Program-made: the position numbers and the translations under genes
The notes under the pieces: generated by a model
What the model saw: the letters and a program-made list of their open reading frames with translations, nothing else
What the model was told of the DNA's origin: nothing
Database searches by the model: none
NCBI GenBank assembly: GCA_002297365.1
Contig: DBKT01000011.1
Span: 18,650 to 82,649, forward strand
Origin: Bacillales bacterium UBA743
GTDB lineage: Bacteria; Bacillota_I; Bacilli_A; RFN20; CAG-826
Direction of reading: 5' to 3'
DNA length: 64,000 nucleotides
Shown: piece by piece, positions 2,325 to 54,205 of the stretch
Layout of the letters: each line of letters opens with the position of its first letter
Position numbering within the stretch: position 1 is the first letter of the stretch

Positions 2325-4460
2325 TTACGATACTTGCTTGATAGACAATGAAATACGTTTCCTAGGAAGGTCAAGAGCAATGACCTTAACCTTGACGATT
2401 TGACCAAGCTCCAACTCGTCACTTGGATGTTTTATGAAATGGTCGGCAATCTCGGAAATGTGGACCAGCCCGTCTTGATGAACGCCTATGTCAACAAAAG
2501 CCCCGAAATCAGAAAGATTACGAACCGTTCCGTTTAGTATCATTCCAACTTGCAAATCTTTGATGTCTTTGACTTTGTTGTCTAATTCCGCAGTTACCGC
2601 TTTTTCGCGTGGGTCTCTGCCTGGTTTCTTTAGCTCTTCGATGATGTCTTTCAAGGTGTATTCGCCAATGCCGAGTTCTTTAGAAAGAGAGGGAATATCC
2701 AAAGGATAATTGAGTTTTGCATTGGATTTTTCCGTTCCCAAATCCGATAAGGAAACGCCCACTTTCTTTAAAAGAACATAGGTTGCTAAATAATCCTTGG
2801 GGTGAACGGCGCTGCGTTCTAAAGGGTTCTCGTTTTCTATGCGGAGGAAACCTGCCGCATCTAAGAAAGTCTTTTGCCCAAAGCCTTTTACCTTTAATAA
2901 ATCTTTTCTCTCTTTGAATGGGCCATGCTCATCACGATATGCAACAATGGCTTTAGCACTTCGTTCGTTTAGCCCTGAAACGTATTTCAAAAGAGAGGGC
3001 GAAGCGGTATTTAGCCATACTCCCACCTCATTTACCGCATCAATGGTCGTGTCTCCCAATGTTTGTTTTAAACGATTCACATCCATGTCGTGCTGATATT
3101 GGCCAACACCAATGGATTCTGGCGGGATTTTAACGAGTTCTGCCATAGGGTCAAGAAGCCTTCTCGCTAAGGAAACCGACGATCTTTCTTCAATGTCCAT
3201 ATTCGGGAATTCTTGAATAGCTAAGGGTGAGGCGCTATAAACGCTGGCTCCTGATTCATTTACGATGGCGATATGCACATTTTCAAGACGGCTTTTCTTT
3301 AAGAAAGATTCAAGGAAAGACTGGCTTTCTCTGCTGGCTGTTCCATTTCCTAAGGCAATATAGTCATATCCATATTTTTGATATAAAGAAAGCAATCTTG
3401 CTTCAGCGTCTTTTTCTTTTCCCACGGTAGGATAGATTATTCCCGTGGATAGGACTTGGCCATTCGCATCGATAAGAGCCAGCTTACAGCCGTTTTTATA
3501 TCCCGGATCGAAACCAAGGATTTGTTTGTCTTTCAAAGGAGGGGCCAATAAAAGCTGTTTTAAGTTTTTAGAAAACAAAGCGAGGGAGGAGTCTTGTGCT
3601 TTTTCAAAAAGCTCTTTGGTGATTTCGTTTTCTAATGATGGGCCTGTCAAACGGTCGTAGGAATCTTCCACTATCTTTTCCAAATAAGTAGAGAAGGAGG
3701 AATCCCTATGAATGATTTTTCTTTCGATATGATGGCAAATGGTAAGCTCATCATAGCTAAAAGAATAAGAGAGTTTCTTTTCTTTTTTAGCGCGTAGCAA
3801 AGCTAATATCTGATAAGACTTGATGCGGGAGATTGGACATTCAAACTGATTGTAATTCTGGTATTTGTTTTCGTTATCTTCTTTGGTTTGTTTAGCTTTG
3901 ATTTTTCCCGTTTTATAAATGTATTCCTTGGCGTAGAGATAAAAATCGGGGTTATCCGATATATTCTCAGCCAGGATATCCATCGCGCCTTGTAAGGCGT
4001 CTTCTAAAGTGGGAACGTCTTTTTTTAAAAATGTCGACGCGTATTCTTTTAAAGAAGAAAGGTCACCTTGTTGTTTTAAAAGGTACTCTGCTAAAGGCTC
4101 CAATCCTTTTTCTTTCGCTATAGATCCCCTTGTTTTTCTTTTTGGCTTATAGGGGCGATAAATGGCCTCTAAAAGAGACAAACTCGTGCATGTCTCCACT
4201 TTTTCTCTTAATTCCGGAGTTAGTTTGCCTTGCTCTTGAATAGATGAGAGAACGGTTTTCTTTCTCTCTTCAAGCTTCTCGAATTTCTCTTTTTCTTCTG
4301 CAAAAGCACGCAATGTCACGTCCGAGAGGTTTCCGGTTTCTTCCTTCTTATAACGGGCAATAAAGGGGATGGTCGCGCCTTCCTCTAAAAGACGAAGAGT
4401 TGCCTCTGCCTGTTTGAAGGAGATATTTAAAACGTTAGATAAATGTTGAGCGATTTCCAT
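2325..4460 (-). CDS. tex: Transcription accessory protein Tex (YqgF/RuvC-like, HhH and C-terminal S1 domains)
   Basis: 711-aa ORF. Typical Tex N-terminus MEIAQ...ISFKQAEATLRLLEEGATIPFIARYRKE-like. C-terminal S1 motif GMILNGTVRNLSDFGAFVDIGVHQDGLVHISE. Confidence 0.85.
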   Translation of the reverse strand: MEIAQHLSNVLNISFKQAEATLRLLEEGATIPFIARYKKEETGNLSDVTLRAFAEEKEKFEKLEERKKTVLSSIQEQGKLTPELREKVETCTSLSLLEAIYRPYKPKRKTRGSIAKEKGLEPLAEYLLKQQGDLSSLKEYASTFLKKDVPTLEDALQGAMDILAENISDNPDFYLYAKEYIYKTGKIKAKQTKEDNENKYQNYNQFECPISRIKSYQILALLRAKKEKKLSYSFSYDELTICHHIERKIIHRDSSFSTYLEKIVEDSYDRLTGPSLENEITKELFEKAQDSSLALFSKNLKQLLLAPPLKDKQILGFDPGYKNGCKLALIDANGQVLSTGIIYPTVGKEKDAEARLLSLYQKYGYDYIALGNGTASRESQSFLESFLKKSRLENVHIAIVNESGASVYSASPLAIQEFPNMDIEERSSVSLARRLLDPMAELVKIPPESIGVGQYQHDMDVNRLKQTLGDTTIDAVNEVGVWLNTASPSLLKYVSGLNERSAKAIVAYRDEHGPFKERKDLLKVKGFGQKTFLDAAGFLRIENENPLERSAVHPKDYLATYVLLKKVGVSLSDLGTEKSNAKLNYPLDIPSLSKELGIGEYTLKDIIEELKKPGRDPREKAVTAELDNKVKDIKDLQVGMILNGTVRNLSDFGAFVDIGVHQDGLVHISEIADHFIKHPSDELELGQIVKVKVIALDLPRKRISLSIKQVS

Positions 4461-7011: not shown

Positions 7012-8637
7012 TTGTCTAAATGCATATCAAATATTGTTACAGGCGTTATTGATTCAAAAGCAATACAATCAATATGTATGAGTTTCACCTTTATTTCTGC
7101 CACAAAAAAAGAAACGGATAAACGGGACTTGGCCTATCTTCAAGTGGATGATAGCCTTCGGCTTATAAAAGAAGACGTTCTTTCTTTTGAAGCGAGTAGC
7201 AAGGAGATTCACGATCTTTTAACCAATCAGGAAACGGGCGTGATTGCTTGGAATGGGTATGATGATTGCCGTCTTTTGTTAGATGAATTTAAGAAAATAG
7301 GCATAGAGCCTTTTGACTTTCAGCTTCTTGACGTTCGATATATGCTTAACGTCATCGAAGAAGATGACGATGAATACGAATTGGAATCCTTTATTCCTTT
7401 ATCCATTCAGAAGAAAGAAACTCATTCCTATCCATTGAAGAAATGTTATTTCATTTTATATGCTTTGAAGAACATCCTTTTTTCCCTTGGAGAGAATTTT
7501 GAGGCGTTTCTCAACAGAAATGATTTCGAATCCTGCTTCTATTATTCCCTTGATGCGTATTTAGGGGTCAATCCGAAAGACATTTATAATTCCCAGCTTG
7601 CCGTAAAAGAACTTCTGGAAAAAGATATCGACCATTATGTGTTTTTTGATTTCGAGTGCGCCAATTGCCTGAATAAAATAGGAAAAATATGCGAAATAGG
7701 CGCGCTCATAACAGACGCCTCTTTGAATACCATCAAAGAAATACATCACCCCATCAATCCGAACAGTGAGTTTCATCTTCTTTCTAACGACAAGATACAT
7801 GGTCTTCACCTTTTTTGGGAAGCGAATGACTATGAAGCCTATCGAAAGGCACCCGCTCTCCCCTATTTCTACGACGAATTCAAAACGCTGTTTTCAGATG
7901 GGAGAGCCATTTATGTAGGCCACGCTGTCGATAATGACATTTCCTTCCTTTATACGGATTTGAAAAGAAATGGCTTAGAGGAGTTTTTGGTTCGGGCGAT
8001 TGACACTCAAAGAATGTACCGAAAGCTAATCGACAAAACGAGCAAAAAGAGCATTAGTTTGGAAAACGCCTTAGTCGCTTTGCTTGGCGAAAATGAGCTT
8101 ATGAAATACACCCCGCATAAATCTTTAGACGATGCAAAAATGACGCTCGCTGTTTTTAGGGCCATCCTAGAAAAATCCGAAATGACTTTAGAAGAAATTT
8201 TAGCCATGTATCCGGGTTGTTTAAGAAGCACGGAGCAAATCGATCTATCTTTCGCCTTAAAAGAAGCGAAGTATGTCTTTCCTCTACCTTATAATTCCAC
8301 GTCAATCGTCCTATCCTCGCCAGAAGATCTTTATTGCGGCTACACCGCAGAGAATACCAGCGAAAGAATCTATCTTGAAGCGTGTCGCGACGATTTTGAG
8401 AAATCGGGAATCGAAACTTATAAAGGAGGAAGATTCTTTTTCCAAAATTTCATTAAAAAACGAAATGCCTATGAGGTCGAAGAAATGATATCTAGAGTGA
8501 AAGAAATGGGCGGAGTGCTTGTTAAGAACCCTCTTTATGCGGATGTGATTGTTTATGAGAAAACAATCGACATAAAGAATCTTCTACACAAGAAAAGCGT
8601 TTCCGTAAATGAGCTGCTTTCTGAAAAAGGCCGATAG
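7012..8637 (+). CDS. DnaQ-like DEDDh 3'-5' exonuclease with a degenerate N-terminal exonuclease-like duplicate and a C-terminal BRCT-like tail
   Basis: Exo I FFDFECAN...EIGAL. Exo II VGHAVDNDISFLYTD. Exo III HKSLDDAKMTLAVFRAI. The N-terminal region repeats the pattern (AWNGYDDCRLL) without the catalytic residues. The track start at 7012 is TTG; the first ATG is at 7078 (MSFTF...) and has no clear RBS. Confidence 0.55.
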   Translation: MSKCISNIVTGVIDSKAIQSICMSFTFISATKKETDKRDLAYLQVDDSLRLIKEDVLSFEASSKEIHDLLTNQETGVIAWNGYDDCRLLLDEFKKIGIEPFDFQLLDVRYMLNVIEEDDDEYELESFIPLSIQKKETHSYPLKKCYFILYALKNILFSLGENFEAFLNRNDFESCFYYSLDAYLGVNPKDIYNSQLAVKELLEKDIDHYVFFDFECANCLNKIGKICEIGALITDASLNTIKEIHHPINPNSEFHLLSNDKIHGLHLFWEANDYEAYRKAPALPYFYDEFKTLFSDGRAIYVGHAVDNDISFLYTDLKRNGLEEFLVRAIDTQRMYRKLIDKTSKKSISLENALVALLGENELMKYTPHKSLDDAKMTLAVFRAILEKSEMTLEEILAMYPGCLRSTEQIDLSFALKEAKYVFPLPYNSTSIVLSSPEDLYCGYTAENTSERIYLEACRDDFEKSGIETYKGGRFFFQNFIKKRNAYEVEEMISRVKEMGGVLVKNPLYADVIVYEKTIDIKNLLHKKSVSVNELLSEKGR

Positions 8638-17822: not shown

Positions 17823-17843
17823 AGAGCCTTTTGGCTCTTTTTC
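17823..17843 (+). terminator. Rho-independent terminator after tdk
   Basis: AGAGCC-TTTT-GGCTCT followed by TTTTC. Confidence 0.7.
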
Positions 17844-17911
17844 TATATCATTTTTTGCTAAGTTCTTAAAAAAATACAGCAAAGCCGTTTCTACGCTTAT
17901 AAAATAAAGAG

Positions 17912-20347
17912 GTGAACCTTGGTGATTTTTTAAAAAAACGTAGATTGGAGCTGAACCTTTCTTTGGCAAACGTCGGAGAGGCCATTTCTTATACTCCCCA
18001 AGCCATTTCCCGTTTCGAGAAAGGGCAAGTAAGGGTGGACATTTGCCTTTTGGCTGATTTAGCGAAGGTTTTGCATTGTAATGTTTCTTCTTTTTTCACA
18101 TTGGTTTTAATAGAAAAAAATGAGGGTTTCCGTGAATTCGATATTTCCCTTTTCGCGAAAGCTCTTTGTTTTTACCGCGAAAAAGAACTATATACCCACA
18201 CTTCTCTTGGAGAGAAAGCAGGGATTTCAAAAGCTAAGATAGGAAAATGGGAAAAAGGAGAAAATTTGCCTAATATCGACGAATTCAAATCTCTCTGCGA
18301 AATTCTAAAAGTAGACTATGAAACCCTTTATTTTGGCAAAGTTCCGGAGAATCCTCCCCAAACTCTTAAAAAGCCAAAAATCTCCTTGGCCAATAAGCTC
18401 CTTTTTGGAGGTTCATTATTCTGTCTTCTGGTAAGTATAGGCGTTTTCACAGGTTTTTCCGTCTATGGGGCGAATCCTTTTAAAGAGAATGGCACAAATC
18501 TTAATTCCACAAAGAAAGATCTAAGCCAATATGCTAAAGTGACTTATCATTACGATTTGCTTGATTTGGACCGCGTTGAACTAGTGCTTAGAGGAGAATG
18601 CGCTCCTTCCCCTTCTTTAGAGGAAGAGGGTTATCTTCTAAAAGGCTATTTCTATCAAGATAAGGAATTTGATTTTTCTTTGCCGATCATGAGCGATATC
18701 ACTCTCATAGGCAAACTAGAAACGAAGAGCTATGATGTCTATTTCATGTCTTTTGACTCTCAAAAAGTAATCGAGCATCAAAAGGTGGAGTTCAAGAAAG
18801 ACGCAATTCCCCCTACGGCTGAAATCATTCCTGGATTTCGTTTTGTTTCCTGGGGGAATTATCAGTGCATAAGAAGAGAGACATTCGTTTATCCTACATA
18901 TGAAAAACTAGGAGACATTACCGTCCATCTGGATCCTGATGGAGGGGATTTAGGTGAGCAAAGCGACACCATTGAGAAATATAGCCAAGACATGCATGAC
19001 TCTTTGCCAAAGCCAACAAAGAAAGGCTATACCTTCCAATATTGGGAATATCAAGGCAAAGAATTCCTTAAGACCACCCCTATCTCCAACGAGATTGTCT
19101 ATCTTAAAGCCATATATAAGGCAAACACCTATACGATTACTTTCGCTCAAACCTCAATATCGCCCATGGAAGTAAGCTATGGCCAAATATTGGAATGGGA
19201 AGACATGCCGGCTCTTGATCCTCTAAGCGGTTCAAAAATCTCCGGATGGTCATATAGCAACGAGCTCCTTACATTCCCCTTCACCTATTCCTATGACTTT
19301 AATATCGTCCTCTATCCCCACTTTGACTCGATCGGTTTCACCTATAGCGAAAATGAAGACGGAACGTTAACGCTTGTCAAAATAATCAATGGGAAAGAAA
19401 AGTCAGTCATCATTCCATCAGAAGCCCAGGGGAAAAGAATTTCCAAAATAGCCAACTCCTGTCTCGTCAACGACTCCGAGATTTCTCAAATCAGGTTTCT
19501 TTCAGAGCAAGTCGATATCGAAGAAGGCGCCTTCCAGAATCTTTCTGCTTTGCGGAAAGTAGACTTCGAAAACATTAAAAGCAGTTCTGTTTTTGCGCCA
19601 AATATTTTCGTGAATTGCCCTAATGTGACTTCCTTGACGATTGGTGAAGCGAAATCCCTTAACGGAGAGCCATATTATTTAAAAGACTATGGTTTAAAAG
19701 GAAAAGAGACTTTCAAATTAACATTCAATTCCTCCTTCGAAAACATTCCAGAGAAATTCAATGAAGGATTTGGGCAAATAGAGACCATCGTTCTTGGCGA
19801 TTCCATTCAAGAGGTTTCCTTTGGATGCCTACATACTTATGGTATTGGCTTGAAAGAATTTTATCCCGGTTTATCTTTAAGGAAGCTAGAGATAGCTTTG
19901 CCTGATTTGGATCAAAACATTCTCCAATTCAATTCCCCTATTGAATTTACGCTTGAAGGGGAGGCCAAAGGAAAGGTTAAACAGCTTATTCTCTCTGAAG
20001 GCGGAAGTCTAACGAACTTCAAAGGATTCACCGCAAACACGTTTAAATCCTTTGGCGATACGAAGTTTAATAACGAGACTCTTATTGCCAGTAAGGACGT
20101 TCATTTAGGGAAGAACGTCACTGTTTATAACACAGAAACGTTGTTTACCAATCTGGATGAGACGGGGATTGACATCACCTTCTATGGCACGAAAACTATA
20201 CCGACAGGCATTTCTAATATTCATTTTTATGTCGGAACGGGGGAAGAAAGAATTCATTTCAATAACGACATGGATTATGAAGAAATTGGTTCTGGCTCTT
20301 CCTCTGGAAATCTCTCTTACGAAGAAATCGGCGATGGAGAAAAATGA
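17912..20347 (+). CDS. Membrane-tethered transcriptional regulator. Two N-terminal XRE-family HTH domains, one TM helix, and a ~630-aa extracellular region ending in BspA-type leucine-rich repeats.
   Basis: HTH1 LSLANVGEAISYTPQAISRFEKGQ. HTH2 LGEKAGISKAKIGKWEKGENLP. TM LLFGGSLFCLLVSIGVFTGFSVY. LRR_5-like IPSEAQGKRISKIANSCLVNDSEISQIRF...EEGAFQNLSALRKVDF. GTG start with upstream stop TAA at 17900. Confidence 0.6.
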   Translation: MNLGDFLKKRRLELNLSLANVGEAISYTPQAISRFEKGQVRVDICLLADLAKVLHCNVSSFFTLVLIEKNEGFREFDISLFAKALCFYREKELYTHTSLGEKAGISKAKIGKWEKGENLPNIDEFKSLCEILKVDYETLYFGKVPENPPQTLKKPKISLANKLLFGGSLFCLLVSIGVFTGFSVYGANPFKENGTNLNSTKKDLSQYAKVTYHYDLLDLDRVELVLRGECAPSPSLEEEGYLLKGYFYQDKEFDFSLPIMSDITLIGKLETKSYDVYFMSFDSQKVIEHQKVEFKKDAIPPTAEIIPGFRFVSWGNYQCIRRETFVYPTYEKLGDITVHLDPDGGDLGEQSDTIEKYSQDMHDSLPKPTKKGYTFQYWEYQGKEFLKTTPISNEIVYLKAIYKANTYTITFAQTSISPMEVSYGQILEWEDMPALDPLSGSKISGWSYSNELLTFPFTYSYDFNIVLYPHFDSIGFTYSENEDGTLTLVKIINGKEKSVIIPSEAQGKRISKIANSCLVNDSEISQIRFLSEQVDIEEGAFQNLSALRKVDFENIKSSSVFAPNIFVNCPNVTSLTIGEAKSLNGEPYYLKDYGLKGKETFKLTFNSSFENIPEKFNEGFGQIETIVLGDSIQEVSFGCLHTYGIGLKEFYPGLSLRKLEIALPDLDQNILQFNSPIEFTLEGEAKGKVKQLILSEGGSLTNFKGFTANTFKSFGDTKFNNETLIASKDVHLGKNVTVYNTETLFTNLDETGIDITFYGTKTIPTGISNIHFYVGTGEERIHFNNDMDYEEIGSGSSSGNLSYEEIGDGEK

Positions 20348-20574
20348 AAAGCTCGTCTAGGGCTAGCTCAAAAGCATCCGTTTTAAGATTGGTTTTCTCT
20401 CCATTAACGTACTAGCTCTGACCAAGAAGCTTTCCCTCACTCTGTCATAGACGCCTATAAGCCTATGTTGTCCATGAACATTTTCTCTAGCGCACTAGGA
20501 ATAGAATGTTAGGAATCCTTGCTTTCGAAAAAGCGAGTTCCAAATGAAACAAAAAGGCAATCAAGAAAAAAGAA

Positions 20575-20799
20575 TCAATCGGAAAAAGTAATATCAGCGA
20601 AGGAATAGCAATCATTCCTTTTGTCATAGAGGAGCTCAAAAGGCAATCCTGCTTCAACAAGAAAACAACGGATATCCGAAAGATATCTAGCGAAGGTAAG
20701 GCTATTGATATCGCAATCATATAAAATATCCGCCTTACGAATCTTTTTTTGGGTGTAAAGGCGATAGAAAATAATCAAAACAACTTCACTTTTAGTCAT
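20575..20799 (-). CDS. Hypothetical small protein (74 aa) with no recognisable family
   Basis: ORF with ATG start in an otherwise empty 680-bp gap. Weak RBS. Could be spurious. Confidence 0.2.
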   Translation of the reverse strand: MTKSEVVLIIFYRLYTQKKIRKADILYDCDINSLTFARYLSDIRCFLVEAGLPFELLYDKRNDCYSFADITFSD

Positions 20800-20994
20800 A
20801 GCATTCTCATATGGCTTCCGCCATACGCTCCAGGGGTTTCCAGTTAGTTGTTTTCTCGAGATTCACTAACAAACTTATTTTCTAAGAGATACTCATTTTT
20901 TGATATGAACACGAATATCGTTTTTTAAACAAATCCGATTTTTTAAGTCTTTTTTGTTGAATTTATGGAAAATAAGGCATGCGTGCGCTTGTTT

Positions 20995-21024
20995 TCAAAA
21001 AAAGCCTTGCGTTTTAACAAGGCT
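20995..21024 (-). terminator. Rho-independent terminator ending the dehydratase-like operon
   Basis: On the minus strand, AAGCCTTG-loop-CAAGGCTT followed by T7, immediately after the stop at 21028-21030. Confidence 0.65.
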
Positions 21025-21027
21025 TCA

Positions 21028-21741
21028 TTATTTGTTTCCGTCTAACTCTTTTTGATGCATCTCCCTCATTCCTTCAACGGTGTCGCATATCTCCTTAAAG
21101 GAACAGGTCCTGCAATCCATCTTCAAAGTCTTCAGAACGTGGTCGAAAGCAACCGTAATGCCTTCCGCTTCTTTTTGAAGGGAGAGAAGCTTCTTATAAT
21201 CAAAGGAAGGATCGGTGACAAAGATTTGCTTAACATGGCGCAAGCTCTTCTCTTTTTTGTATTCCTGCAAAAAAGACATGCCGATATCTTTGAACGAGAT
21301 CCCTTTTTGAACGGCTTTTTTTGATACACGTCCCCCTTCTTTTAGGGAATTGGTATTAATTCTAAGCATGAATCCTATGGGAGATACCTTATAACGGGAA
21401 TATTCCAAATTGCGGAACAAACGATAGATGTCTTGATCCTTTTTGCCTTCTTCATCAATCAGAAAGAACGATAAATGAGCAAAAGGCGTTTCTTTTGGAA
21501 GAGAAGAGAGGTCTTTCCCAAGCAAAAGAATTTCATCTTTTTGAACGTAATCGGAATTCGAGGTATATCCCATGAAATAGGAGGAGTCCTTTATTCCGCC
21601 AAGCTCCACTTGTGCATCCTCTGGGAAAATGAACTCTTTTTGTTTTTGCGAAGGAAAAGAACTTTCTAAAGGGAAAGAAATCATCTCTTTCCCCTCAAAA
21701 AGCTTCAAAGCCTCTTTTATTAACGAATCGTATAGATTCAT
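21028..21741 (-). CDS. Hypothetical protein with C-terminal CxxCx6C motif, the last gene of the CooC/dehydratase-like operon
   Basis: 237 aa. No family recognised. C-terminal KMDCRTCSFKEICDT. Tightly packed after the activase gene. Confidence 0.5.
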   Translation of the reverse strand: MNLYDSLIKEALKLFEGKEMISFPLESSFPSQKQKEFIFPEDAQVELGGIKDSSYFMGYTSNSDYVQKDEILLLGKDLSSLPKETPFAHLSFFLIDEEGKKDQDIYRLFRNLEYSRYKVSPIGFMLRINTNSLKEGGRVSKKAVQKGISFKDIGMSFLQEYKKEKSLRHVKQIFVTDPSFDYKKLLSLQKEAEGITVAFDHVLKTLKMDCRTCSFKEICDTVEGMREMHQKELDGNK

Positions 21742-21924
21742 ATCTATTCCAAATGGCGATTCCTTTTTCTCTTATCGTATTTCTTGTTAATCCATTTTTG
21801 GACGTGAACGAGCAACTTCGAGTCCAAGTTAAACATATAGACGATAAACAAAATGATAAAAAGCAAAAGGATAAAGGCAAGAATGGAGCCTAAAACGATT
21901 AGAAGTATAACCCACCATTCCATG

Positions 21925-22728
21925 TTAATTCGCCTCTTTCAACCCTTTTTGACGGGCATATTCCGCAGCCCCTAAAGCACCCATTAGCTGAGGGTCGATC
22001 GGAAGGTCTTTGACTTTAAGATGCAAGACTTTCTCAATGGCTTGTTTCAAACCGGCGTTTTTCGCGCATCCGCCAGTTAAAGTGATAGAATCGGTGGCGC
22101 CCGCTTTTTTCGCCATCACAAAGCAACGTTTGGCAACCGACATCATGATTCCTGCCGCAATATCTTCCATCGGTTTCCCTTCGCCGACAAGAGAAATAAC
22201 CTCAGACTCGCAGAAGACGGTGCACTGCGAAGTGATTGGAATGATATTATTGGCTTTCAGAGAGAGATTGCAGAAATCGTCCAAATCCATTTCAAAGCTT
22301 CTTGCCATCGCCTCAAAGAAACGCCCCGTGCCAGCTGAGCACTTATCATTCATGGCGAAGTTTTGAACCGTGCCGTCTTTCGGATCGATGGCAATGCCTT
22401 TAATATCTTGACCACCGATATCGATAATGGAGGTAACACTTGGATCGGCAACATGCACGCCCATAGCGTGGCATGAGATTTCTGAGATGTTTTCGTTGGC
22501 AAATGGGACTTTGTTTCTTCCATATCCCGTGCCAATCAAATACGTTAAATCACTCGCATCATGAAGTTCGGGAACCTGTTTGATCGTTTCTTCTAGAGCG
22601 ATCTTAGCGCTCTCTACAGCATTGATTTTGCTCTTTAAAGTGGTATGAGCCACCATTCTCCCATTTTCATCTAAAATGACACATTTGGTATATGTCGAAC
22701 CTGCATCACAGCCACCAAAATATTTCAT
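21925..22728 (-). CDS. BadF/BadG/BcrA/BcrD-type ATPase, a CoA-substrate-specific enzyme activase (HgdC / DCCP reductase-like)
   Basis: MKYFGGCDAGSTYTKCVIL N-terminus and actin-fold ATPase blocks. ATG at 22728 has AAGGAA 7 nt upstream. The track start at 22761 is upstream of it. Confidence 0.8.
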   Translation of the reverse strand: MKYFGGCDAGSTYTKCVILDENGRMVAHTTLKSKINAVESAKIALEETIKQVPELHDASDLTYLIGTGYGRNKVPFANENISEISCHAMGVHVADPSVTSIIDIGGQDIKGIAIDPKDGTVQNFAMNDKCSAGTGRFFEAMARSFEMDLDDFCNLSLKANNIIPITSQCTVFCESEVISLVGEGKPMEDIAAGIMMSVAKRCFVMAKKAGATDSITLTGGCAKNAGLKQAIEKVLHLKVKDLPIDPQLMGALGAAEYARQKGLKEAN

Positions 22729-22741
22729 ATTCATTTCCTTT

Positions 22742-24295
22742 CTACCAGCGTTGAGCATCATCGAAATCCACTAAGGATGGATCCAACGGCTCTTCTCTCA
22801 GAACCGTTTTCATGTAACGATTCACGTCTTCGCGCATGTCTTTTCTTGTCGCTTTTGTCGGATTCATCAAAGCATGATACACCCAAACAATATGGATGCC
22901 TCTCTTTCTTCCTTCTTCTTCCAAAAGCCCGTGATATCCAGCCATGGATTTGCAGCCGATATGCTCATACATGATGACCATATCCGCATGATACTCTTCG
23001 CAATATTGCCAAAGTTGTTCCACGCCAACTTCGTATCCGCCATTGGAATGGTTACGCATAATCATGTTCATGTTGTATTCGCCTAAATCCAATAAAGCTT
23101 GCTCATGATCCTCATAATTGATTGGTTTTGTTAAGGTGAAAGAAAGCATATCACAAAGGCAAACGATTCCCCAGCAATTGGAAAGCCATTGGTTGAAGGC
23201 GGTGTAATATTGGGCATGGACGCCCCAAACAAGGGCTCTATGCCTAACTTCCTTGCAAGGCAAACGTTTTTCTTTGTAGCCTTTCTTTGCCAAGTCCGTA
23301 ATCTCTTGGTCGAATTTCAAGAAAGATGGGTCACGCCCGGAAATGACCATATATTCCGCATCGCGGTAAAGCATGACGTTGTTATTGACCACTTGCGGAT
23401 AATCGGTTTTGTTCATCTCCATCCATTCTTGGAATAAGGCGTTTTGAGCATTATAGGTCTTCATGTTTCTGGCAAAGGCATCCCAATCCCACTTCTCACC
23501 GGTATGTTTTTCAATAAAATGAATGGCTTCCACGATCTGATCGCGGGAATAAGCCAAAACCGATTTCTGTTGATGACGCATAGGGGCAGCCATTGTGAAA
23601 GAAGGCAAATCATCATGCCTGTCCTCGATTTGGTTGCCCATCAAAGAACCATCGCAAGTGGTGTTGCAGTGCACCGCGCAAACGCCGCAAATTGGATAAT
23701 CTTCATCGATGGCGCAGCCAAGTTCGGCGCAAGGCATAGGGCAAACATCGCCCGGGATTTGAAATTCCTCTGCCGTTTCGATGTAATGGAGGACTCCATC
23801 TTGAGCAATGGTTGATCCCGTATAAATGGCAGGAACCTCTTTCGAAAGAAATTTCAAGTTAGGGAAGCCGGTGGCGATAACCATCATTCCGTTTTCGTCC
23901 ATGATGACAAGTTTCTTGTTTAATTCATCGTATTTCCCGTGTTTGTTTCCAATACGCTTATCGCATTTGAAAAGAGTATCCATGGTTTGGGTAAGATGCT
24001 CCACGATGGAATCGTATTCGATATGGGCAATGCGAAGTTGTTCTCCGCGCACCCCTTCAACATGGCGGTCGATGTAGTCGAACGCAGCCAAATAATTGCC
24101 AAACCAACGGTAAGTGAACATCGCCTTTATGGTGGTTGGCTTCATGATGAACTTCGACATAACCAAAAGATTATGAAGCCATCTTGAAAAATCGTACATC
24201 GTGTCTTTGAAGCCTCTCCATTCACGACGTTTGGCTGTTTTTTTGCCGGGCTTATTCAGCTTTCCGAGATTTTGATCTCCCTTACGTTTTTCCAT
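22742..24295 (-). CDS. Alpha-like subunit of the 2-hydroxyacyl-CoA dehydratase / benzoyl-CoA reductase (HgdA/BcrC-like) family
   Basis: 517 aa. Family-typical length and conserved Cys content. Start overlaps the stop of the beta-like gene. Confidence 0.65.
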   Translation of the reverse strand: MEKRKGDQNLGKLNKPGKKTAKRREWRGFKDTMYDFSRWLHNLLVMSKFIMKPTTIKAMFTYRWFGNYLAAFDYIDRHVEGVRGEQLRIAHIEYDSIVEHLTQTMDTLFKCDKRIGNKHGKYDELNKKLVIMDENGMMVIATGFPNLKFLSKEVPAIYTGSTIAQDGVLHYIETAEEFQIPGDVCPMPCAELGCAIDEDYPICGVCAVHCNTTCDGSLMGNQIEDRHDDLPSFTMAAPMRHQQKSVLAYSRDQIVEAIHFIEKHTGEKWDWDAFARNMKTYNAQNALFQEWMEMNKTDYPQVVNNNVMLYRDAEYMVISGRDPSFLKFDQEITDLAKKGYKEKRLPCKEVRHRALVWGVHAQYYTAFNQWLSNCWGIVCLCDMLSFTLTKPINYEDHEQALLDLGEYNMNMIMRNHSNGGYEVGVEQLWQYCEEYHADMVIMYEHIGCKSMAGYHGLLEEEGRKRGIHIVWVYHALMNPTKATRKDMREDVNRYMKTVLREEPLDPSLVDFDDAQRW

Positions 24296-25491
24296 TATTC
24301 GCCTTCCCTTTCTTCTTGGAGTTTCTTGATTTCAACCGCTTCAATAAAAGCTTGGATGCGGGTTCTTAATTGGCCAGATTGGCCAACATTATAAGGCCTA
24401 TCGATTGAAAGGGTCTTATAGCCGTATTGGTGTTGCATCACCGCATTCATGAAGGCTCTGCCATATCCCCAATAATCGCAGAACTTGATTTGCTCGATGA
24501 TAAGGCCATCAACATGGTATTCTTTCCCGATTTTATCAACATAGGCATGCCTCTCATTCACTTTTTCGGTGGTAAGGAAACGAGGGCATTGTCCGGATTC
24601 CATATAGTAACGGCAAACTTGAGTCAAAGCATCTTCGTCTTTGCTAAGCTCGATGACTTGTCTTCCAGGAAGAGAGCCGAAACAATAACGGTCTGCGACT
24701 ACGATAAGGCCGCATTCCTCTGCTAGTTTGATTAATTGTGGATCATCGATTTCCGAGCCGACGATAGCAACGCGGCAACGATATGTCCCCTTCTTTTCGG
24801 GAACGCGGTTTTTCACTTCTTCGAGGGTTTCCTCCAATTTAGCGATGAGTTTGTCTTTCGGGCAGCAATAGGTCGCTAAGCAAAGAACGGCAAACTCATA
24901 TCCGGTAATGCGAGGGGTTTCATCTTTTCTGAAATCGCCAATTTCCGTAATGAGTTTGGAAATCTTGTTTTGCTCTTCAACAGCTTTACGGATCGCTTCG
25001 TCAGAGATATCGATTCCGAAATTCTCGTGCAATGGCTTTAAAACGTGTTCTTGCATTTGAAGAACGTAATGCTTCAAAGTGCTCGCATCGCTTTTCATGG
25101 GAACATCGACATAGGAAGCGAAGAAATGGGGTTTCGTGCAGCAATTTAAATGTTCGATGTTTTCGACGCAGCGATTCATCATGGCGCAGGCTTCAGGGGC
25201 AATGATGGCATCTAAGAAGTTGAAGCCTCCTTCTAACGCTCTTTCAAGAATTGCTCTGCAAGCTTCGCAGAAAATCGGGGAAAGGTAGTAGCTCCCCATT
25301 TCGATGCTTCCCGTACGCGGGGCTCTTAAACGTACGGAGAAAATGCCAGGAAGATTTAATAAAGGCTCAGGAATTTGATAGCAAACGTGACCAATGGCCA
25401 TCCTTCCTTCCCCTTGGGCTTCTCCGATTAACTCGTTATAAGAATTCTCAAGAAGCTTCTCGAAATAATACAAATGTTTCAGGTCTCTCAT
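24295..25491 (-). CDS. Beta-like subunit of the 2-hydroxyacyl-CoA dehydratase (HgdB-like, HGD-D) family
   Basis: ~400 aa. ATG at 25491 has AAGGAG 8 nt upstream and is preferred over the TTG at 25512. Overlaps the end of the CooC-like gene. Confidence 0.65.
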   Translation of the reverse strand: MRDLKHLYYFEKLLENSYNELIGEAQGEGRMAIGHVCYQIPEPLLNLPGIFSVRLRAPRTGSIEMGSYYLSPIFCEACRAILERALEGGFNFLDAIIAPEACAMMNRCVENIEHLNCCTKPHFFASYVDVPMKSDASTLKHYVLQMQEHVLKPLHENFGIDISDEAIRKAVEEQNKISKLITEIGDFRKDETPRITGYEFAVLCLATYCCPKDKLIAKLEETLEEVKNRVPEKKGTYRCRVAIVGSEIDDPQLIKLAEECGLIVVADRYCFGSLPGRQVIELSKDEDALTQVCRYYMESGQCPRFLTTEKVNERHAYVDKIGKEYHVDGLIIEQIKFCDYWGYGRAFMNAVMQHQYGYKTLSIDRPYNVGQSGQLRTRIQAFIEAVEIKKLQEEREGE

Positions 25492-25508
25492 CGATGTCTC
25501 CTTATATA

Positions 25509-26276
25509 TCAAAGAATATGTATTTTCTTCAACGCCTCTGATGTCCCTTTCACAATAGGCGCATCATCAGAAAGGAAGAAGACATTTTCTCCATCCATGT
25601 CAAAACGGGCTAATTCTTCGTCCATTGGGATCTTAGCTAAAACTGGAATTCCTCCGACGTCTAGCTCTTCCTTCATCGCTAAAGAGGAAAGGCGGTTCGC
25701 AATCACGCCGATTTCTTTGTACATAACGAGCTCATCCGCCACTTTTTTGATGGTCTTTACGACTTGTCTTCCTTTTTGGCTTTGATCGGTGACAAGCAAT
25801 AGGTGAGTCACTTTTTCCATGACGCGACGGTTAATTTGCTCAATTCCCGCTTCGCCATCGATCACGACATAATCGTAATGAGAAGAAATAGCCGAAATGA
25901 CTTCCTTGAGATAAGTATTAATCTTGCAATAACAACCGCTTGCTTCTGGGCGGCCGATAGCCATAAAAGAGAAACCGTTTTGATTCACGATGGCCTCTTC
26001 GATGGAATACTCGGCATTGCCAAGAACTTCCACAACGGCATTTTTGCCATCTTCTGAAGCGGCAATCGCTTCTTTTCTCACATCATCGATAGTCTTTTTC
26101 GTCTCAATTCCCAAAGCCGTAGAAAGCCCGACCGCTGGATCGGCATCGATGGCTAAGATTTTCTTATCCGGATAGTTCTTAGCCAAGAGCCTGACAATGC
26201 ATGCGGCAATAGACGTTTTGCCTACTCCGCCCTTACCTGCTACGGCAATGATACGCGGGGATATTTCCTTATTCAT
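25509..26276 (-). CDS. CooC/AcsF-like MinD-superfamily P-loop ATPase with CxC metal-binding motif
   Basis: Deviant Walker A AVAGKGGVGKTS. CooC-type SGCYCK motif. ATG at 26276 with AAGGAAAGG RBS. The track start at 26282 is TTG. Confidence 0.7.
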   Translation of the reverse strand: MNKEISPRIIAVAGKGGVGKTSIAACIVRLLAKNYPDKKILAIDADPAVGLSTALGIETKKTIDDVRKEAIAASEDGKNAVVEVLGNAEYSIEEAIVNQNGFSFMAIGRPEASGCYCKINTYLKEVISAISSHYDYVVIDGEAGIEQINRRVMEKVTHLLLVTDQSQKGRQVVKTIKKVADELVMYKEIGVIANRLSSLAMKEELDVGGIPVLAKIPMDEELARFDMDGENVFFLSDDAPIVKGTSEALKKIHIL

Positions 26277-26618: not shown

Positions 26619-29042
26619 TCATTTGAACTTAGACATATTGTCTAGACGTCCTTTAAGCTCATCGATTTCGCCCTCAAATGTTCTGATTTGTGAATCCAGT
26701 CTTGTTACGATGCCCTTACTTATGAAAAAGATGAGAAGAAAATTTATTGCTGCCACAACGAAAGGCGCCCACCAAATAAAATGGGGCACGTTGGTGATAT
26801 TTCCAAAGCATAACAAAAAAACTATTGGAGGTGCAAGAAGGGGCGAAACCGAAAACACCATAAACAGCCGTTTTGCGACGCTTTCTGTGTGTTCCTTGCG
26901 TCGTTCCAGTTGCCCTAATTCGTTTGATTTTTGAGAAAGATCATCTTCAACACCCGAAAAAATTTCGTTTTTAGTCATCTCAAGTTTGCTTTCCTCTTCT
27001 TGGGAAGGAATACCATTTGCCTTGCCTTCTGATAGGCAAAAAGGACAGGCTATTTGCTTTTTTTCATATACGGTTCCGCAACGAGTGCAGTAAACCAAAT
27101 CATCATACTTTGCAATATTAACTGTGTCGCACCCTTGCCGATGAGCCAACTCACCAAAGCTTTGCGCACTTCGATAACTCTTCTCGATGCCTATGCCTTT
27201 TTCGTAGTTTTCAGCAAGGATGGCTGAAGCTTCTCCACAGCCCAAATCGGAAGCCTTCCGAAAATAAAGATTGGCCGCTTGTGGATCTTTGAATATGCCA
27301 CGCCCTTTTAGGTAGCAAATGCCAGTCCAGTAATTGGCCGCTTTGTATCCAAGCTTCGCCGCATCAAAAAATGCCTTCAGTTTGAGGGATGCTTCCATGG
27401 GTTTTGGACCCTCGCGAAGAAGCCGTTTTTGATTCAATTCCCCTGCATCTATTTTCTTTTGCAAGTAGGCTCTAAGATAGAACTCCCCCGCTAGCGTCAA
27501 AGAGGGCGATGTGCCGATTCCGATGTCGTAACATAGAGCCAGGTTCCATAAGGCGTTTGAATGCCCCAAAGAGTTTTCTTTGAGCTTTTCGAAAACATCC
27601 GGAATTTCCTTCAGCTCTTCTGGGGTAAGACGTTGGTTAATGAATTCTAAACTAGATTGTATGGTCTTTTGGGAAGACGTTCCCAGCAATACGGTTTTGT
27701 TATCCGAATCCAAAGACGAGGTGACGCACAGCTTTGTAATGAAGTTTTTAGGCCTTTCGTTTTTCGTTTTTTCAGAAGCTGCCGATAAAACGACATTTTG
27801 GAATCCGCTTGTCTCTGTTTCTGACTGTTTTGCATTTGATTTCGTTATCTTCTTTGATTCCGTCTCTTGGCTTCGACCAACGTCCTGGGAAGCAACACCG
27901 TAATGCTTTCTCGTCAAATATATAAGCAAAGCCACAATATGTTTGCAGGGGCTATGCCACCGCAAATAAGAAGGGCAGGAGCATCGGCAGTCGATTATTT
28001 GAGACTTATCGTTCGAAAGAAGAAGCTCGGTATCATAGACGTTTCCGTTTGATCCATGGACTTTAACAGCAAACCACGTCCCAGCGTCGTTAAACCGCAA
28101 ATCAAATAACCTCCCTTCGTTAACGTACTTCATCGCTTTTAGCGCCGTAACGTCCTTTTGGGATTCGTCCTTATGAGTCATGTATTGATAAATTTGCTCT
28201 GCGGAAAAGGAAGGAAAGAAAGAATCGGCGGTCTTAGAGTCCGTAACAGGTTTGGCCGCTCCCTGGTTCGGAATTGATCCATTTAGGCTCTTTAAAGCTT
28301 TTTTCGCTTGCGGGAAACCTAATTCAGCTGCTTCTTTGATAAGTGCTGCCCCTTCTTCTTTTTGGCCTCCGTTATACCTAAGAACGCCCAGTTGATACTT
28401 ACCCTCCGCACTTCCGCCATTCGCTGCTGTTTGAAAGAGGCTCAAAGCCTTTTTCATGTCCGGTTCCACGCCATATCCACGCAGAAAGCAATCCCCTAAA
28501 GCGCTTGCCGCTTCCATGAACCCGGCGGCAAAAGATAAAGTGAAGAAGGCCGCCGCCATTACGTCGTCTTCCTTCACCCCAGTTCCAGTCAAAAGGCAAA
28601 GACCGGCTTGGTAAGTGGCAATAGGATAGCCTTTTAAGGCGGCCTGGCTATAGGCCTCGTAGGTTGGAGTGAAGGGCACTATGTTTATCGCTTTTTCGTC
28701 AGGATCTTTTAGAATGATTTTCCCTTCATCCAATTGGGCTAGGGTCCAAGCCATTAGATAATGAGCATTGGCCAAATCGGGATCTTGTTTTGTTCCAATA
28801 CCGCAATCATAGCAAACGGCCAAATTCCAAAGCCCATTGGGATATCCCTGCGCTTTTTTCTCTAGAATTTGAAATAAGCCGGGTTCTTTTTTTAAAAGGT
28901 CGGACGATAGTTTTTTGCTGAGACATTCCTCTTGGGCGGGCGCCACTTCGGAAAAACCAATCGTCATCATGTATTTTCCATTAAGCCCATCGGTAACGGA
29001 TGGTGACCTAGATGGCCAAAGATTAATCACCGCTTTTTTCAT
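26619..29042 (-). CDS. Multidomain protein with two Sel1-repeat blocks, a SWIM zinc finger, a zinc ribbon, TM helices and a C-terminal coiled coil
   Basis: Sel1 blocks GLWNLAVCYDCGIGTKQD and ALWNLALCYDIGIGT. SWIM CRCSCPSYLRWHSPCKH. Zinc ribbon CTRCGTVY...CPFC. Hydrophobic LLAPPIVFLLCF...VVAAINFLLIFFI. Confidence 0.6.
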   Translation of the reverse strand: MKKAVINLWPSRSPSVTDGLNGKYMMTIGFSEVAPAQEECLSKKLSSDLLKKEPGLFQILEKKAQGYPNGLWNLAVCYDCGIGTKQDPDLANAHYLMAWTLAQLDEGKIILKDPDEKAINIVPFTPTYEAYSQAALKGYPIATYQAGLCLLTGTGVKEDDVMAAAFFTLSFAAGFMEAASALGDCFLRGYGVEPDMKKALSLFQTAANGGSAEGKYQLGVLRYNGGQKEEGAALIKEAAELGFPQAKKALKSLNGSIPNQGAAKPVTDSKTADSFFPSFSAEQIYQYMTHKDESQKDVTALKAMKYVNEGRLFDLRFNDAGTWFAVKVHGSNGNVYDTELLLSNDKSQIIDCRCSCPSYLRWHSPCKHIVALLIYLTRKHYGVASQDVGRSQETESKKITKSNAKQSETETSGFQNVVLSAASEKTKNERPKNFITKLCVTSSLDSDNKTVLLGTSSQKTIQSSLEFINQRLTPEELKEIPDVFEKLKENSLGHSNALWNLALCYDIGIGTSPSLTLAGEFYLRAYLQKKIDAGELNQKRLLREGPKPMEASLKLKAFFDAAKLGYKAANYWTGICYLKGRGIFKDPQAANLYFRKASDLGCGEASAILAENYEKGIGIEKSYRSAQSFGELAHRQGCDTVNIAKYDDLVYCTRCGTVYEKKQIACPFCLSEGKANGIPSQEEESKLEMTKNEIFSGVEDDLSQKSNELGQLERRKEHTESVAKRLFMVFSVSPLLAPPIVFLLCFGNITNVPHFIWWAPFVVAAINFLLIFFISKGIVTRLDSQIRTFEGEIDELKGRLDNMSKFK

Positions 29043-50357: not shown

Positions 50358-50376
50358 GTTTATTTCCTTTTCTTAA

Positions 50377-52434: not shown

Positions 52435-52447
52435 TGTTTCTCCTTAA

Positions 52448-54052: not shown

Positions 54053-54205
54053 AAGGAACCTCACCACTATAACTATAAAATTATATTGTAGATAACGAGA
54101 ATGGAAAAGGACGAAAGAAGAGCAAGAAAATGCTCCTGGGGTTTCTTTTTAGTGACATAGTTTTTATTACTAGGTATACTAGAGATTGAAAAAAGGGGTT
54201 TTGTT

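Follow-up and report, generated by a model that had tools for sequence, protein, structure and literature searches.

The DNA considered here is a stretch of 64,000 nucleotides from Bacillales bacterium UBA743 (assembly GCA_002297365.1, contig DBKT01000011.1, positions 18,650 to 82,649 of the forward strand), referred to below as the window, and positions in it are those used throughout. The subject is one large gene, whose product joins two XRE-type helix-turn-helix (HTH) domains to a presumed transmembrane (TM) helix and a C-terminal part of about 620 residues built from repeats of the kind found in cell-surface proteins. Convergent with it, 228 nt away and with the scar of a deletion between, lies a small gene for a minimal winged-helix protein, the companion, beside which there is a composite sequence element. 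Homologues of the large gene and the companion recur together in several clades and the element in three, and the arrangement may represent a membrane-tethered transcription regulator with a local target. The features are collected in Table 1.

Table 1. Features of the locus, with positions in the window (ORF, open reading frame; LRR, leucine-rich repeat)
Feature	Position	Strand	Description
Control region of the large gene	17839-17911	+	~73 nt, travels with the large gene; TATCA-N5-TGcTA plus -10-like TATAAAAT (17898-17905)
Large gene	17912-20347	+	811-aa ORF, GTG start, stop included; tandem XRE, TM, Flg_new, LRR
HTH1, XRE/Cro-C1 type	17912-18106	+	residues 1-65; HTH_31 at 3-55; helix ...SYTPQAISRFEKG...
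HTH2, XRE/Cro-C1 type	18152-18346	+	residues 81-145; HTH_3 at 88-137; ...GISKAKIGKWEKGENLP...
Hydrophobic segment, presumed signal-anchor TM helix	18392-18472	+	residues 161-187, NKLLFGGSLFCLLVSIGVFTGFSVYGA
Flg_new-type (Listeria-Bacteroides repeat) beta region	18530-19345	+	residues 207-478, about four modules
Degenerate BspA-type LRR region	19352-20191	+	residues 481-760; from fold and relatives
Deletion scar	20360-20556	.	~2 kb lost relative to relatives; blastn of the gap against L085 and L002
Companion gene	20575-20799	-	74-aa minimal winged-helix (HTH_11-like) protein, motif ...TFARYLSDIRCFL...
Cis element upstream of the companion	20905-20958	-	AACAAAAAAG-N16-TTTGTTTAA (20925-20958), N15, GTTCAT (core 20905-20933)
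Sigma-70-like match	20969-20998	-	TTGAAA-18-TATTTT, just upstream of the cis element; consensus scan only, not functional evidence

The tandem HTH module and the membrane segment

Pfam places both N-terminal domains well above threshold, with HTH_3 (PF01381) at 60.4 bits (cut-off 23) over residues 3-55 and 88-137 and HTH_31 (PF13560) at 55.1 bits (gathering score 27). HTH2 also resembles the P22 c2 repressor in sequence, and the XRE repressors RstR, DicA and Wmk of NCBIfam match the protein below threshold only. In an AlphaFold2 model built from 8 sequences, the predicted local distance difference test (pLDDT) was 82-88 across the two domains and 82-87 for HTH1. A Foldseek comparison of the whole model with the PDB matched the HTH region to the P22 c2-operator complex, SinR-DNA, C.AhdI and 434 at a root-mean-square deviation of 1.0-1.1 A over ~60 residues, with target TM-scores of 0.8-0.9 and with HTH1 and HTH2 not separated as alignment partners. 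The tandem domains may bind DNA sequence-specifically, to which conserved recognition helices and a nearby conserved inverted repeat point indirectly.

Behind these domains, a Kyte-Doolittle scan gave a sole peak of at least 1.6 (windows 157-187, maximum 2.05), and the hydrophobic segment is Gly-rich (5 Gly in 27 residues) and preceded by KKPK. With an HTH_3 domain and a hydropathy peak on one chain, the protein falls within the transmembrane transcription regulators (TTRs), the class in which a DNA-binding domain shares its polypeptide with one or more TM segments. As a Shine-Dalgarno-like AAAGAGGTGA overlaps the GTG, a start farther downstream was looked for; the only TTG and GTG close by lie in another frame, which is closed by a stop after 4 codons, and the TTG at 17942, although in frame, lacks conservation, so the GTG at 17912 was kept.

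The composite ectodomain

The C-terminal part comprises ~270 aa of Flg_new-type modules followed by ~280 aa of degenerate BspA-type LRR. Flg_new (PF09479) was matched at residues 337-384 with 27.8 bits (cut-off 27), and an internal repeat aligned residues 207-275 with 338-406 (z = 6.7, 0 of 300 shuffles), the two middle modules having diverged. In the AlphaFold2 model residues 205-400 are all-beta (pLDDT ~85) and residues 510-650 form a solenoid block (pLDDT 91-94), with low confidence for the tail at 759-811. The LRR_5 profile (PF13306) reached 22.3 bits at residues 512-637, under its cut-off of 27.7, and residues ~481-760 are assigned to this type because relatives match LRR_5 and the fold agrees. 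Indeed, Foldseek aligned the C-terminal block with the BspA-type surface LRR proteins 4gt6, 4fs7, PcpA (4cp6), TpLRR (6mlx) and 4oju in the PDB, at E-values of ~2e-4 to 1e-3 for 4gt6, 4fs7 and 4cp6. Moreover, a profile search with the large protein found thousands of giant Flg_new/LRR surface proteins that match the ectodomain repeats only. The domain types and folds of the ectodomain are those of cell-surface proteins.

An earlier sequence-only reading of the window had described much of this, with two consecutive XRE/Cro-type domains, a single TM helix and a ~630-residue BspA-type LRR ectodomain whose repeats recur in the lipoprotein at 52448-54052. The two HTH domains and the one hydrophobic segment stand as proposed, and the LRR assignment holds for residues ~481-760; residues ~207-478 are of the Flg_new type instead. 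The link to 52448-54052 (minus strand) was also upheld, as this is a genuine lipoprotein (lipobox FLAAC, LRR_5 at 255.7 bits) whose first repeat aligns with the first LRR repeat of the large protein.

That lipoprotein belongs to a minus-strand run at 48666-54067 of three probable surface proteins, namely the LRR_5/LRR_8 lipoprotein itself, a 685-aa Big_2 protein (50377-52434) and a 563-aa protein with no Pfam match (48666-50357). The run may be a surface-protein cluster sharing the repeat repertoire of the sensor ectodomain.

Family conservation and exchange of the ectodomain

Copies of the large gene in the databases include one identical protein (P0001), an identical copy on the independent contig L092, and 6 clusters at 76-81% identity. 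Relatives at 29-36% identity in the protein database are full-length with the same precomputed domains. An exhaustive profile search extended the family to ~19 separate clusters at 50% identity, with proteins of 750-840 aa that are colinear with the window protein from position 1, and the full-length architecture was present in more than 25 independent contigs. The homologue search for an HTH-TM-LRR architecture that had been recommended with the sequence-only reading was therefore productive, yielding 22 aligned colinear members with identity to the window protein down to 22%. Pfam matches in this alignment comprised HTH_3 in 22 of 22, LRR_5 in 17 (best E 6.6e-55) and Flg_new in 14 (best 1e-36). 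The single hydrophobic segment was kept at ~160-197 in 21 of the 22, and the 15 residues flanking it held on average 3.95 Lys/Arg on the N-terminal side and 1.05 on the C-terminal side. This is a positive-inside bias, and the protein may be oriented with its N terminus inside and its C terminus outside (N-in/C-out).

The HTH domains are the best conserved part of the protein, with identities to distant members of 40% for HTH1, 34% for HTH2 and 12-29% elsewhere. Canonical recognition helices (...YTPQAISRFEKG... and ...QTISKWExGESLP...) are kept in the family, and the least conserved regions are the juxtamembrane segment and the stalk. Among close orthologues, omega (dN/dS) was ~0.10 over the whole gene, 0.01-0.04 in HTH1 and 0.07-0.14 in the ectodomain, values that are rough because dS is near saturation. 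By these estimates the gene is under purifying selection throughout, and no diversifying selection on the ectodomain was seen at the level of regions, where resolution is poor and dS near saturation. A fusion artefact of two ORFs, which had been named as an outcome that would undo the sequence-only reading, or a pseudogene, is excluded by the more than 25 full-length contigs, the architecture shared by the 22 aligned members and an omega of ~0.1 along the whole length.

More distant relatives came from metagenomes, which were scanned with an 11-member subfamily alignment, and from the reciprocal test described below. In six loci (L105, L108, L109, L111, L112 and L115), the large protein matches the query over the first ~190 residues only. 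These six have two HTH_3 domains, mostly with a YTPQA(I/L)SRFE helix, one TM segment and a Ser/Thr-rich stalk, and their ectodomains (250-520 aa) show no Pfam match and no Flg_new or LRR similarity. It looks, from these alignments, as though distant members swap the sensor domain and hold the N-terminal module constant. A constant cytoplasmic module with interchangeable ectodomains is the pattern of a signal transducer, and it counts against the HTH domains being a passive anchor for an adhesin.

The organisms carrying the family are uncultured gut Bacilli or 'Mollicutes' known from metagenome-assembled genomes (MAGs), including UMGS237, Bacilli MAG154, MAG314 and Ca. Onthovivens. In the Ca. 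Onthovivens MAG, a 351-aa ORF (L008, 7977-9029) has the tandem HTH, the TM segment and the first beta module only; it is either short by nature or a pseudogene that has been truncated, and there is no companion within 8 kb of it. One 80%-identical orthologue (L004, CAVGNR010000020.1) is titled 'Escherichia coli isolate ... cleanbin_000009'. Its gene context is that of low-GC Bacilli, and the record is thus evidently a mislabelled or mis-binned MAG.

The companion winged-helix gene

The sequence-only reading had found no obvious partner or target for the large protein, and had described the 680-bp gap downstream as holding only a 74-aa orphan ORF. None of these statements survives comparison with relatives. 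The ORF has homologues beside family genes in several clades, the gap is the scar of a ~2-kb deletion, and the conserved small winged-helix gene and its conserved cis element are candidates for the missing partner and target.

Companion orthologues are ~80% identical, and the 74 aa of the window correspond to the conserved core of a 96-aa gene call in relatives, taken from an internal Met. The N-terminal extension of that call is frameshifted in the window, and 74 aa is therefore likely to be the true product. The window copy has no Pfam match, and homologues in the P0008/P0009 clade match HTH_11 at 27.9 bits (cut-off 25) plus HTH_Mga. The AlphaFold2 model (pLDDT 92.8) has the a1-b1-a2-a3-b2-b3 topology of a winged helix, and its best fold matches are F-112, CapW, Sso10a, BrxR and PurR-N, at E-values that are weak (at least 4.5e-3). 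On this model the companion can be called a minimal winged-helix protein with confidence. A surface motif, SD(I/F/L)RC(F/Y)L, is conserved among its homologues.

The pairing of the two genes extends well beyond close orthologues. In the P0008/P0009 clade, whose large genes are 35% identical, a 70-aa companion for which no gene had been called adjoins divergently (BLASTP 3e-7, colinear), and the still remoter P0010 gene is followed on its own strand, after 168 nt, by a companion (hmmsearch 4e-13). Four more tandem-HTH genes from metagenomes (L105, L108, L109 and L110) have a divergent adjoining companion. In all, at least six gene arrangements pair the companion with tandem-XRE-TM genes, the pairs being divergent in P0008/P0009, L105, L108, L109, L110, L111 and L115, co-directional in L088 and L112, and convergent in the window. 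An improved companion profile found 22 copies in 13,030 ORFs (1.38 Mb), each beside a family gene, with no further match among these ORFs even at E <= 10.

A reciprocal test started from 66 homologues of the small protein picked independently of the large gene, five of which, on long contigs, were checked. In three of the five (L111, L112 and L115), the small gene directly adjoins a gene for a 447-478-aa protein with tandem XRE domains, one TM segment and a Ser/Thr-rich stalk. Conversely, no companion was found within 6-8 kb of the large genes in the clade L094-L100/L103 (~30% identity, 799-815 aa), in L008 or beside the single-HTH protein P0017. A 73-aa divergent ORF in L095 was considered as a cryptic companion and rejected, being absent from sister loci and without similarity to the small protein.

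Two tandem small winged-helix genes occur in L110 (223-787) and in L114 (4631-5231). The latter also has, at 3047-3337, a 96-aa remnant of the large-gene family consisting of HTH1 only, which suggests a sensor gene that is decaying with its small genes retained.

A defence-system or prophage origin was considered and rejected. The small protein had no match in PADLOC or PHROGs, the HTH domains of the large protein drew generic models only (in PADLOC, HTH_VI, the RmrA N-terminus and CapH), and the neighbours are housekeeping genes.

A conserved element beside the companion

The element as a whole has the form AACAAAAA...TTTGTTTA-N15/16-GTTCAT and overlaps the putative promoter region of the companion. 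On the minus strand of the window it reads TTCAACAAAAAAG-N15-TTTGTTTAAAAAA-N-GTTCAT, and its counterpart in the P0008 clade, within a 128-nt divergent spacer, reads TTTAAACAAAAAG-N12-CTTTTTTGTTTAAA-N-GTTCAT. The 64 kb of the window contain the pattern AACAAAAA-N(8-24)-TTTGTTTAA a single time, against 0.00 expected (100 shuffles), and of 87 loci only the 10 with the gene pair have it. The core TTTGTTTA-N15/16-GTTCAT is likewise present a single time in the window (0.00 expected), and 11 of 110 loci have it, each time next to a family gene. The half-site TTTGTTTAAA was rejected as a regulon marker, as it is not enriched in the window (17 observed, 17.6 expected) and specificity lies only in the composite.

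The element spans three clades and, in loci with both, stands immediately upstream of the small gene. In L098, from the clade without a small gene, it lies between the large gene and a divergently transcribed lipoprotein gene. The element thus goes with the XRE-TM gene rather than with the small gene, and this tips the balance mildly towards the XRE protein as the binder. The version in L088 is degenerate (ACAAAAAA-N16-TGTTTAAA).

Two other explanations for this conservation were considered. Rfam found no RNA family in the spacers. A micro-ORF (ATGAAC...) running across the repeat would encode 7 aa in the clade of the window and 20-27 aa in that of P0008; as the lengths differ between clades, a peptide is unlikely and the conservation is rather at the level of DNA.

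A higher-GC subgroup has a perfect GTTCGAAC palindrome in the equivalent spacer (L105, ~1175; L108, ~5865; L109, ~3105; L111, 4946-4953; L115, 5006-5013), and a CAAACAA box in the spacers of L105, L108 and L109. The GTTCGAAC and CAAACAA sequences may correspond to the GTTCAT and AAACAA boxes that the window clade has.

The control region of the large gene

The large gene has a short control region of its own that is kept in L002, L003 and L004 despite different sequence farther upstream. Orthologues have a perfect TATCA-N5-TGATA palindrome there, which is degenerate in the window, and L085 has a compensatory ATATCA/TGATAT variant. The L002 orthologue sits at a rearrangement breakpoint. An IS110-family transposase (L002, 6626-7813) replaces the thymidine-kinase side just upstream of it, and the ~75-nt control region is retained.

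The -10-like box TATAAAAT ends 6 nt before the GTG. In the P0008 clade (L001, ~7975-8003), TTAAAAT stands 12 nt before the ATG with no Shine-Dalgarno sequence, and the L095-type clade (~2510-2535) has a perfect extended -10, TGGTATATAAT, 8 nt before the ATG. A -10-like box thus lies 6-12 nt before the start in three clades, two of which lack a Shine-Dalgarno sequence. Boxes that nearly abut the start codon suggest a near-leaderless mRNA, and the transcript of the large gene is likely, from these sequences, to be near-leaderless across the family. Leaderless transcripts are known from repressor genes of the cI type, such as lambda cI. A simple sigma-70 scan upstream of the large gene gave nothing convincing, and no -35 was fixed.

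Gene neighbourhood and envelope cargo

Upstream of the large gene, the window and its close relatives have in common a Bmp-ABC transporter and thymidine kinase. Downstream, close relatives have genes for a GH5 cellulase and a DZR zinc-ribbon membrane protein as well as the 96-aa gene. In L085, L086, L002 and L090-L093, the cellulase (464 aa, with a signal-anchor) and the DZR protein (166 aa, 2-TM) occupy the place of the scar, co-directional with the small gene and with gaps of 48 and 103 nt.

Where the genes that follow the small gene are intact, their products belong to the envelope. L115 has a lipoprotein and a protein with 6 TM segments, L112 and L114 have SHOCT membrane proteins, L111 a lipoprotein longer than 1,600 aa that combines Flg_new with LRR_5, and L098 a lipoprotein; Band_7 proteins occur among such products as well. 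The large gene of the P0008 clade is itself followed by genes for two Big_2 surface proteins.

A second kind of membrane-bound XRE protein, BcrR-like with one HTH_3 and 3-4 TM segments (264-273 aa), was seen at L001 6814-7608, L083 5814-6608 and L112 2043-2864. It adjoins the module in the P0008/P0009 clade (a 4-TM form just upstream of the large genes) and in L112, and these lineages appear to be rich in membrane-tethered XRE regulators.

Directly beyond the small gene lies a conserved minus-strand cluster (21028-25512, likewise L002 12951-17415) that encodes a CdhC-like 237-aa protein, a 59-aa ORF, an activator ATPase of BcrAD/BadFG type and two HGD-D (2-hydroxyacyl-CoA dehydratase-like) subunits. 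Farther on, at 26619-29042 (minus strand), an 807-aa protein unusually joins Sel1 repeats to a SWIM zinc finger, and it matches a DUF2207-like membrane C-terminus weakly and below threshold (18 bits; cut-off 33).

A proposed mechanism and its alternatives

The large protein is tentatively interpreted, from its sequence, as a membrane-bound transcription regulator of N-in/C-out topology that would bind the nearby element through its tandem HTH, control the small gene and the envelope genes, and take its input from the ectodomain, a reading that falls a little short of an even chance. The protein would insert with its N terminus inside, so that the two XRE domains are cytoplasmic, ~15-25 residues from the single TM helix, and the N/S/T-rich stalk, the Flg_new modules and the degenerate LRR solenoid would face outward as the ligand- or contact-sensing part. 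From the membrane, the tandem HTH would reach the element at the companion promoter. The small gene heads a short run of envelope genes in most relatives, and the output could conceivably be a small diffusible regulator together with surface cargo.

A number of points weigh against this interpretation, and the case is computational throughout. In the window protein the charge bias is weak (4 Lys/Arg on the N-terminal side of the TM segment, 3 on the C-terminal side), and AlphaFold2 confidence is low at residues 146-204, with the TM segment (pLDDT 26-39) not modelled as a helix. In the reciprocal test two of the five loci lack a large gene, L114 having only its remnant, 1.7 kb off, and L113 none. 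The clade L094-L100/L103, which lacks the companion, is well sampled, and the element is likewise missing within 6 kb there except in L098. Two clades had been inspected before the motif patterns were drawn up, so only recurrences within a clade and in the third clade are independent. The centres of the repeat arms are separated by ~26 bp, a distance not usual for XRE dimers or tandem HTH proteins, and the spacing varies, with a 6-nt loop in L098 and another spacing in L088. Upstream of the large gene itself, the window clade has only a half-site-like TTTTTTGcTAA. The cargo has been deleted from the window, where the module may therefore be partly decayed. Finally, the element could equally well be the small protein's own operator.

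A more ambitious form of the interpretation would make the two genes a switch of the CI/Cro kind, in which the XRE partner is tethered to the membrane and fitted with exchangeable sensors, and in which contact with a ligand of the host or of a surface directly flips the local promoter, so that a minimal diffusible winged-helix regulator would be made along with envelope cargo. This must be considered rather doubtful for now.

The operator question leads to a different mechanism, in which the tandem HTH does not act on DNA at all; instead it would hold the small protein at the membrane until ligand frees it to bind the element and autoregulate its operon, by a logic like that of anti-sigma/sigma, CI/MOR or BlaR1/BlaI pairs. 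The tight co-occurrence of the two genes, the conserved surface motif of the small protein and the position of the element, which in loci with both always directly precedes the small gene, would all fit such sequestration, and the wide spacing of the arms suits a pair of winged-helix dimers no worse than an XRE protein. XRE HTH domains do serve as protein-binding modules in RodZ. Both domains here, however, keep canonical DNA-recognition helices and match operator-bound repressors at ~1 A, and no covariation is apparent across clades between the HTH1 helix and the motif of the small protein. Moreover, L098 has the element with no small gene within 6 kb, and one clade carries the large gene alone. 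Sequestration is therefore regarded as unlikely, if still worth weighing.

Tethering raises the problem of reach, which would be solved if shedding of the ectodomain and intramembrane cleavage released a soluble tandem HTH to act chromosome-wide. A single-pass, Gly-rich TM segment, a short juxtamembrane linker and a low-complexity stalk behind the TM segment would be suitable for proteolysis of this kind. Nonetheless, the contexts examined contain no linked gene for a site-1 or site-2 protease, there is no conserved cleavage motif in a juxtamembrane and stalk region that is the least conserved part of the protein, and the element lies near the gene in all clades that have it, as expected for local action by a tethered regulator. 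Proteolytic release thus seems improbable.

It is comparably improbable that the protein is chiefly a Flg_new/BspA-LRR surface binding protein whose HTH-TM part is a signal-anchor, with the HTH a relic or autoregulatory only. Giant surface proteins with homology to the ectodomain are very numerous, the window has other surface proteins built of the same repeats, and the ectodomain is itself under purifying selection (omega 0.07-0.14), all of which an adhesin would explain. Yet the most conserved and constrained part of the protein is the HTH domains rather than the ectodomain, the N-terminal module persists as ectodomains are exchanged, and neither the two intact HTH domains nor the linked regulator gene and the conserved element would be needed by a mere anchor.

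A RodZ-like role in the cytoskeleton or in morphogenesis, with the HTH binding MreB in place of DNA, is very improbable. RodZ has a similar gross layout (an XRE-superfamily HTH at the N terminus, a single TM segment and a C-terminal domain outside the cell), but the large protein has two HTH domains instead of one and no DUF4115, HTH_25 is absent from it and matched in only 1 of 22 relatives, and its family is narrow, with variable ectodomains and a linked small regulator. With neither HTH_25 nor DUF4115, the large protein is not RodZ.

Relation to known systems

The general kind of protein to which the preferred interpretation assigns the large gene is already known. In the census of Demey et al. 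2023 (PMC10269533), HTH_3 TTRs are an established class of 4,523 proteins, or ~9% of the total, single-pass proteins make up ~56% of TTRs, and RodZ-type HTH_25 proteins 11%. HTH_3 TTRs are thus common and single-pass forms dominant, and, as that source puts it, membrane-tethered one-component regulators are common, very few have been studied, and how they reach their DNA targets is an open question (PMC10269533). The large protein shares with the HTH_3 TTRs a one-component design with a cytoplasmic DNA-binding domain, a single-pass TM segment and an extracytoplasmic part, and differs in its tandem HTH, its Flg_new plus BspA-LRR ectodomain, its small companion and its cis element. In the part of the supplement to PMC10269533 that was covered, the string 'LRR' does not occur.

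The likeness to ToxR that was proposed in the sequence-only reading holds for the design and not for the family. ToxR/TcpP-ToxT, VtrA-VtrB and CadC are membrane-anchored and N-in, as the large protein is presumed to be, lack a signal peptide, and offer a parallel for the switching on of a nearby gene, that of a second regulator (ToxT, VtrB) included, and a single-pass XRE protein with an extracellular sensor fits that scheme. The DNA-binding part here is, however, XRE HTH_3 and not the OmpR/PhoB winged helix, and the lineage is Gram-positive or wall-reduced. Trans_reg_C found no match in the large protein at E <= 1 in Pfam, and, lacking an OmpR-type DNA-binding domain, the protein falls outside the ToxR family. 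The partners differ as well, in that ToxS, TcpH and VtrC are periplasmic or membrane co-sensors and the companion is a 74-aa cytoplasmic winged helix.

Phage CI/Cro and CI/MOR pairs offer another parallel, namely an XRE regulator with a ~70-aa DNA-binding protein, divergent in most clades, with inverted repeats in the spacer. As in CI/Cro, the -10 box of the XRE gene stands almost at the start codon in the family. The differences include the TM segment and large ectodomain in place of an oligomerisation or S24 domain, the lack of a phage context, a small protein that is an HTH_11-like winged helix with no PHROG match, and the convergent order in the window. By analogy, the closest comparison would be a CI/Cro-type switch with a membrane-tethered XRE partner as to gene layout, and a ToxR-to-ToxT relay as to logic.

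BcrR of Enterococcus faecalis is a membrane-bound XRE sensor of bacitracin that regulates a neighbouring operon. It has one HTH, four TM segments and no ectodomain, and senses within the membrane, whereas the large protein has two HTH domains, one TM segment and a ~620-aa ectodomain. The ectodomain blocks and folds, and a probable binding of host or surface ligands, are shared with T. forsythia BspA, PcpA, TpLRR and the B-repeat of Listeria internalin, but those are secreted, lipid- or wall-anchored adhesins without a cytoplasmic DNA-binding domain.

In the searchable literature, a limited library in which absence does not prove novelty, there was no HTH-TM-LRR protein, no membrane-anchored XRE protein with an ectodomain, no tandem-XRE-TM module with exchangeable ectodomains, no Flg_new/BspA-LRR ectodomain on a regulator, and no description of the linked ~70-aa winged-helix gene or of the conserved element.

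Significance

The family offers a compact case in which a constant output module, swappable ectodomains, a 70-aa regulator and, in each clade that has it, a nearby element occur together. This combination makes it possible to test which protein binds what, whether tethering confines a regulator to targets nearby, and whether a small soluble relay lets a regulator at the membrane act farther away. The surface LRR and Flg_new proteins of the host bacteria probably mediate contact with the host or with particles, and a sensor made from the same repeats is a candidate link between adhesion and gene control in uncultured gut Bacilli of the 'Mollicutes'-like type. If the CI/Cro-like reading were true, the pair would constitute an unrecognised signal-transduction module of reduced-genome gut Bacilli.

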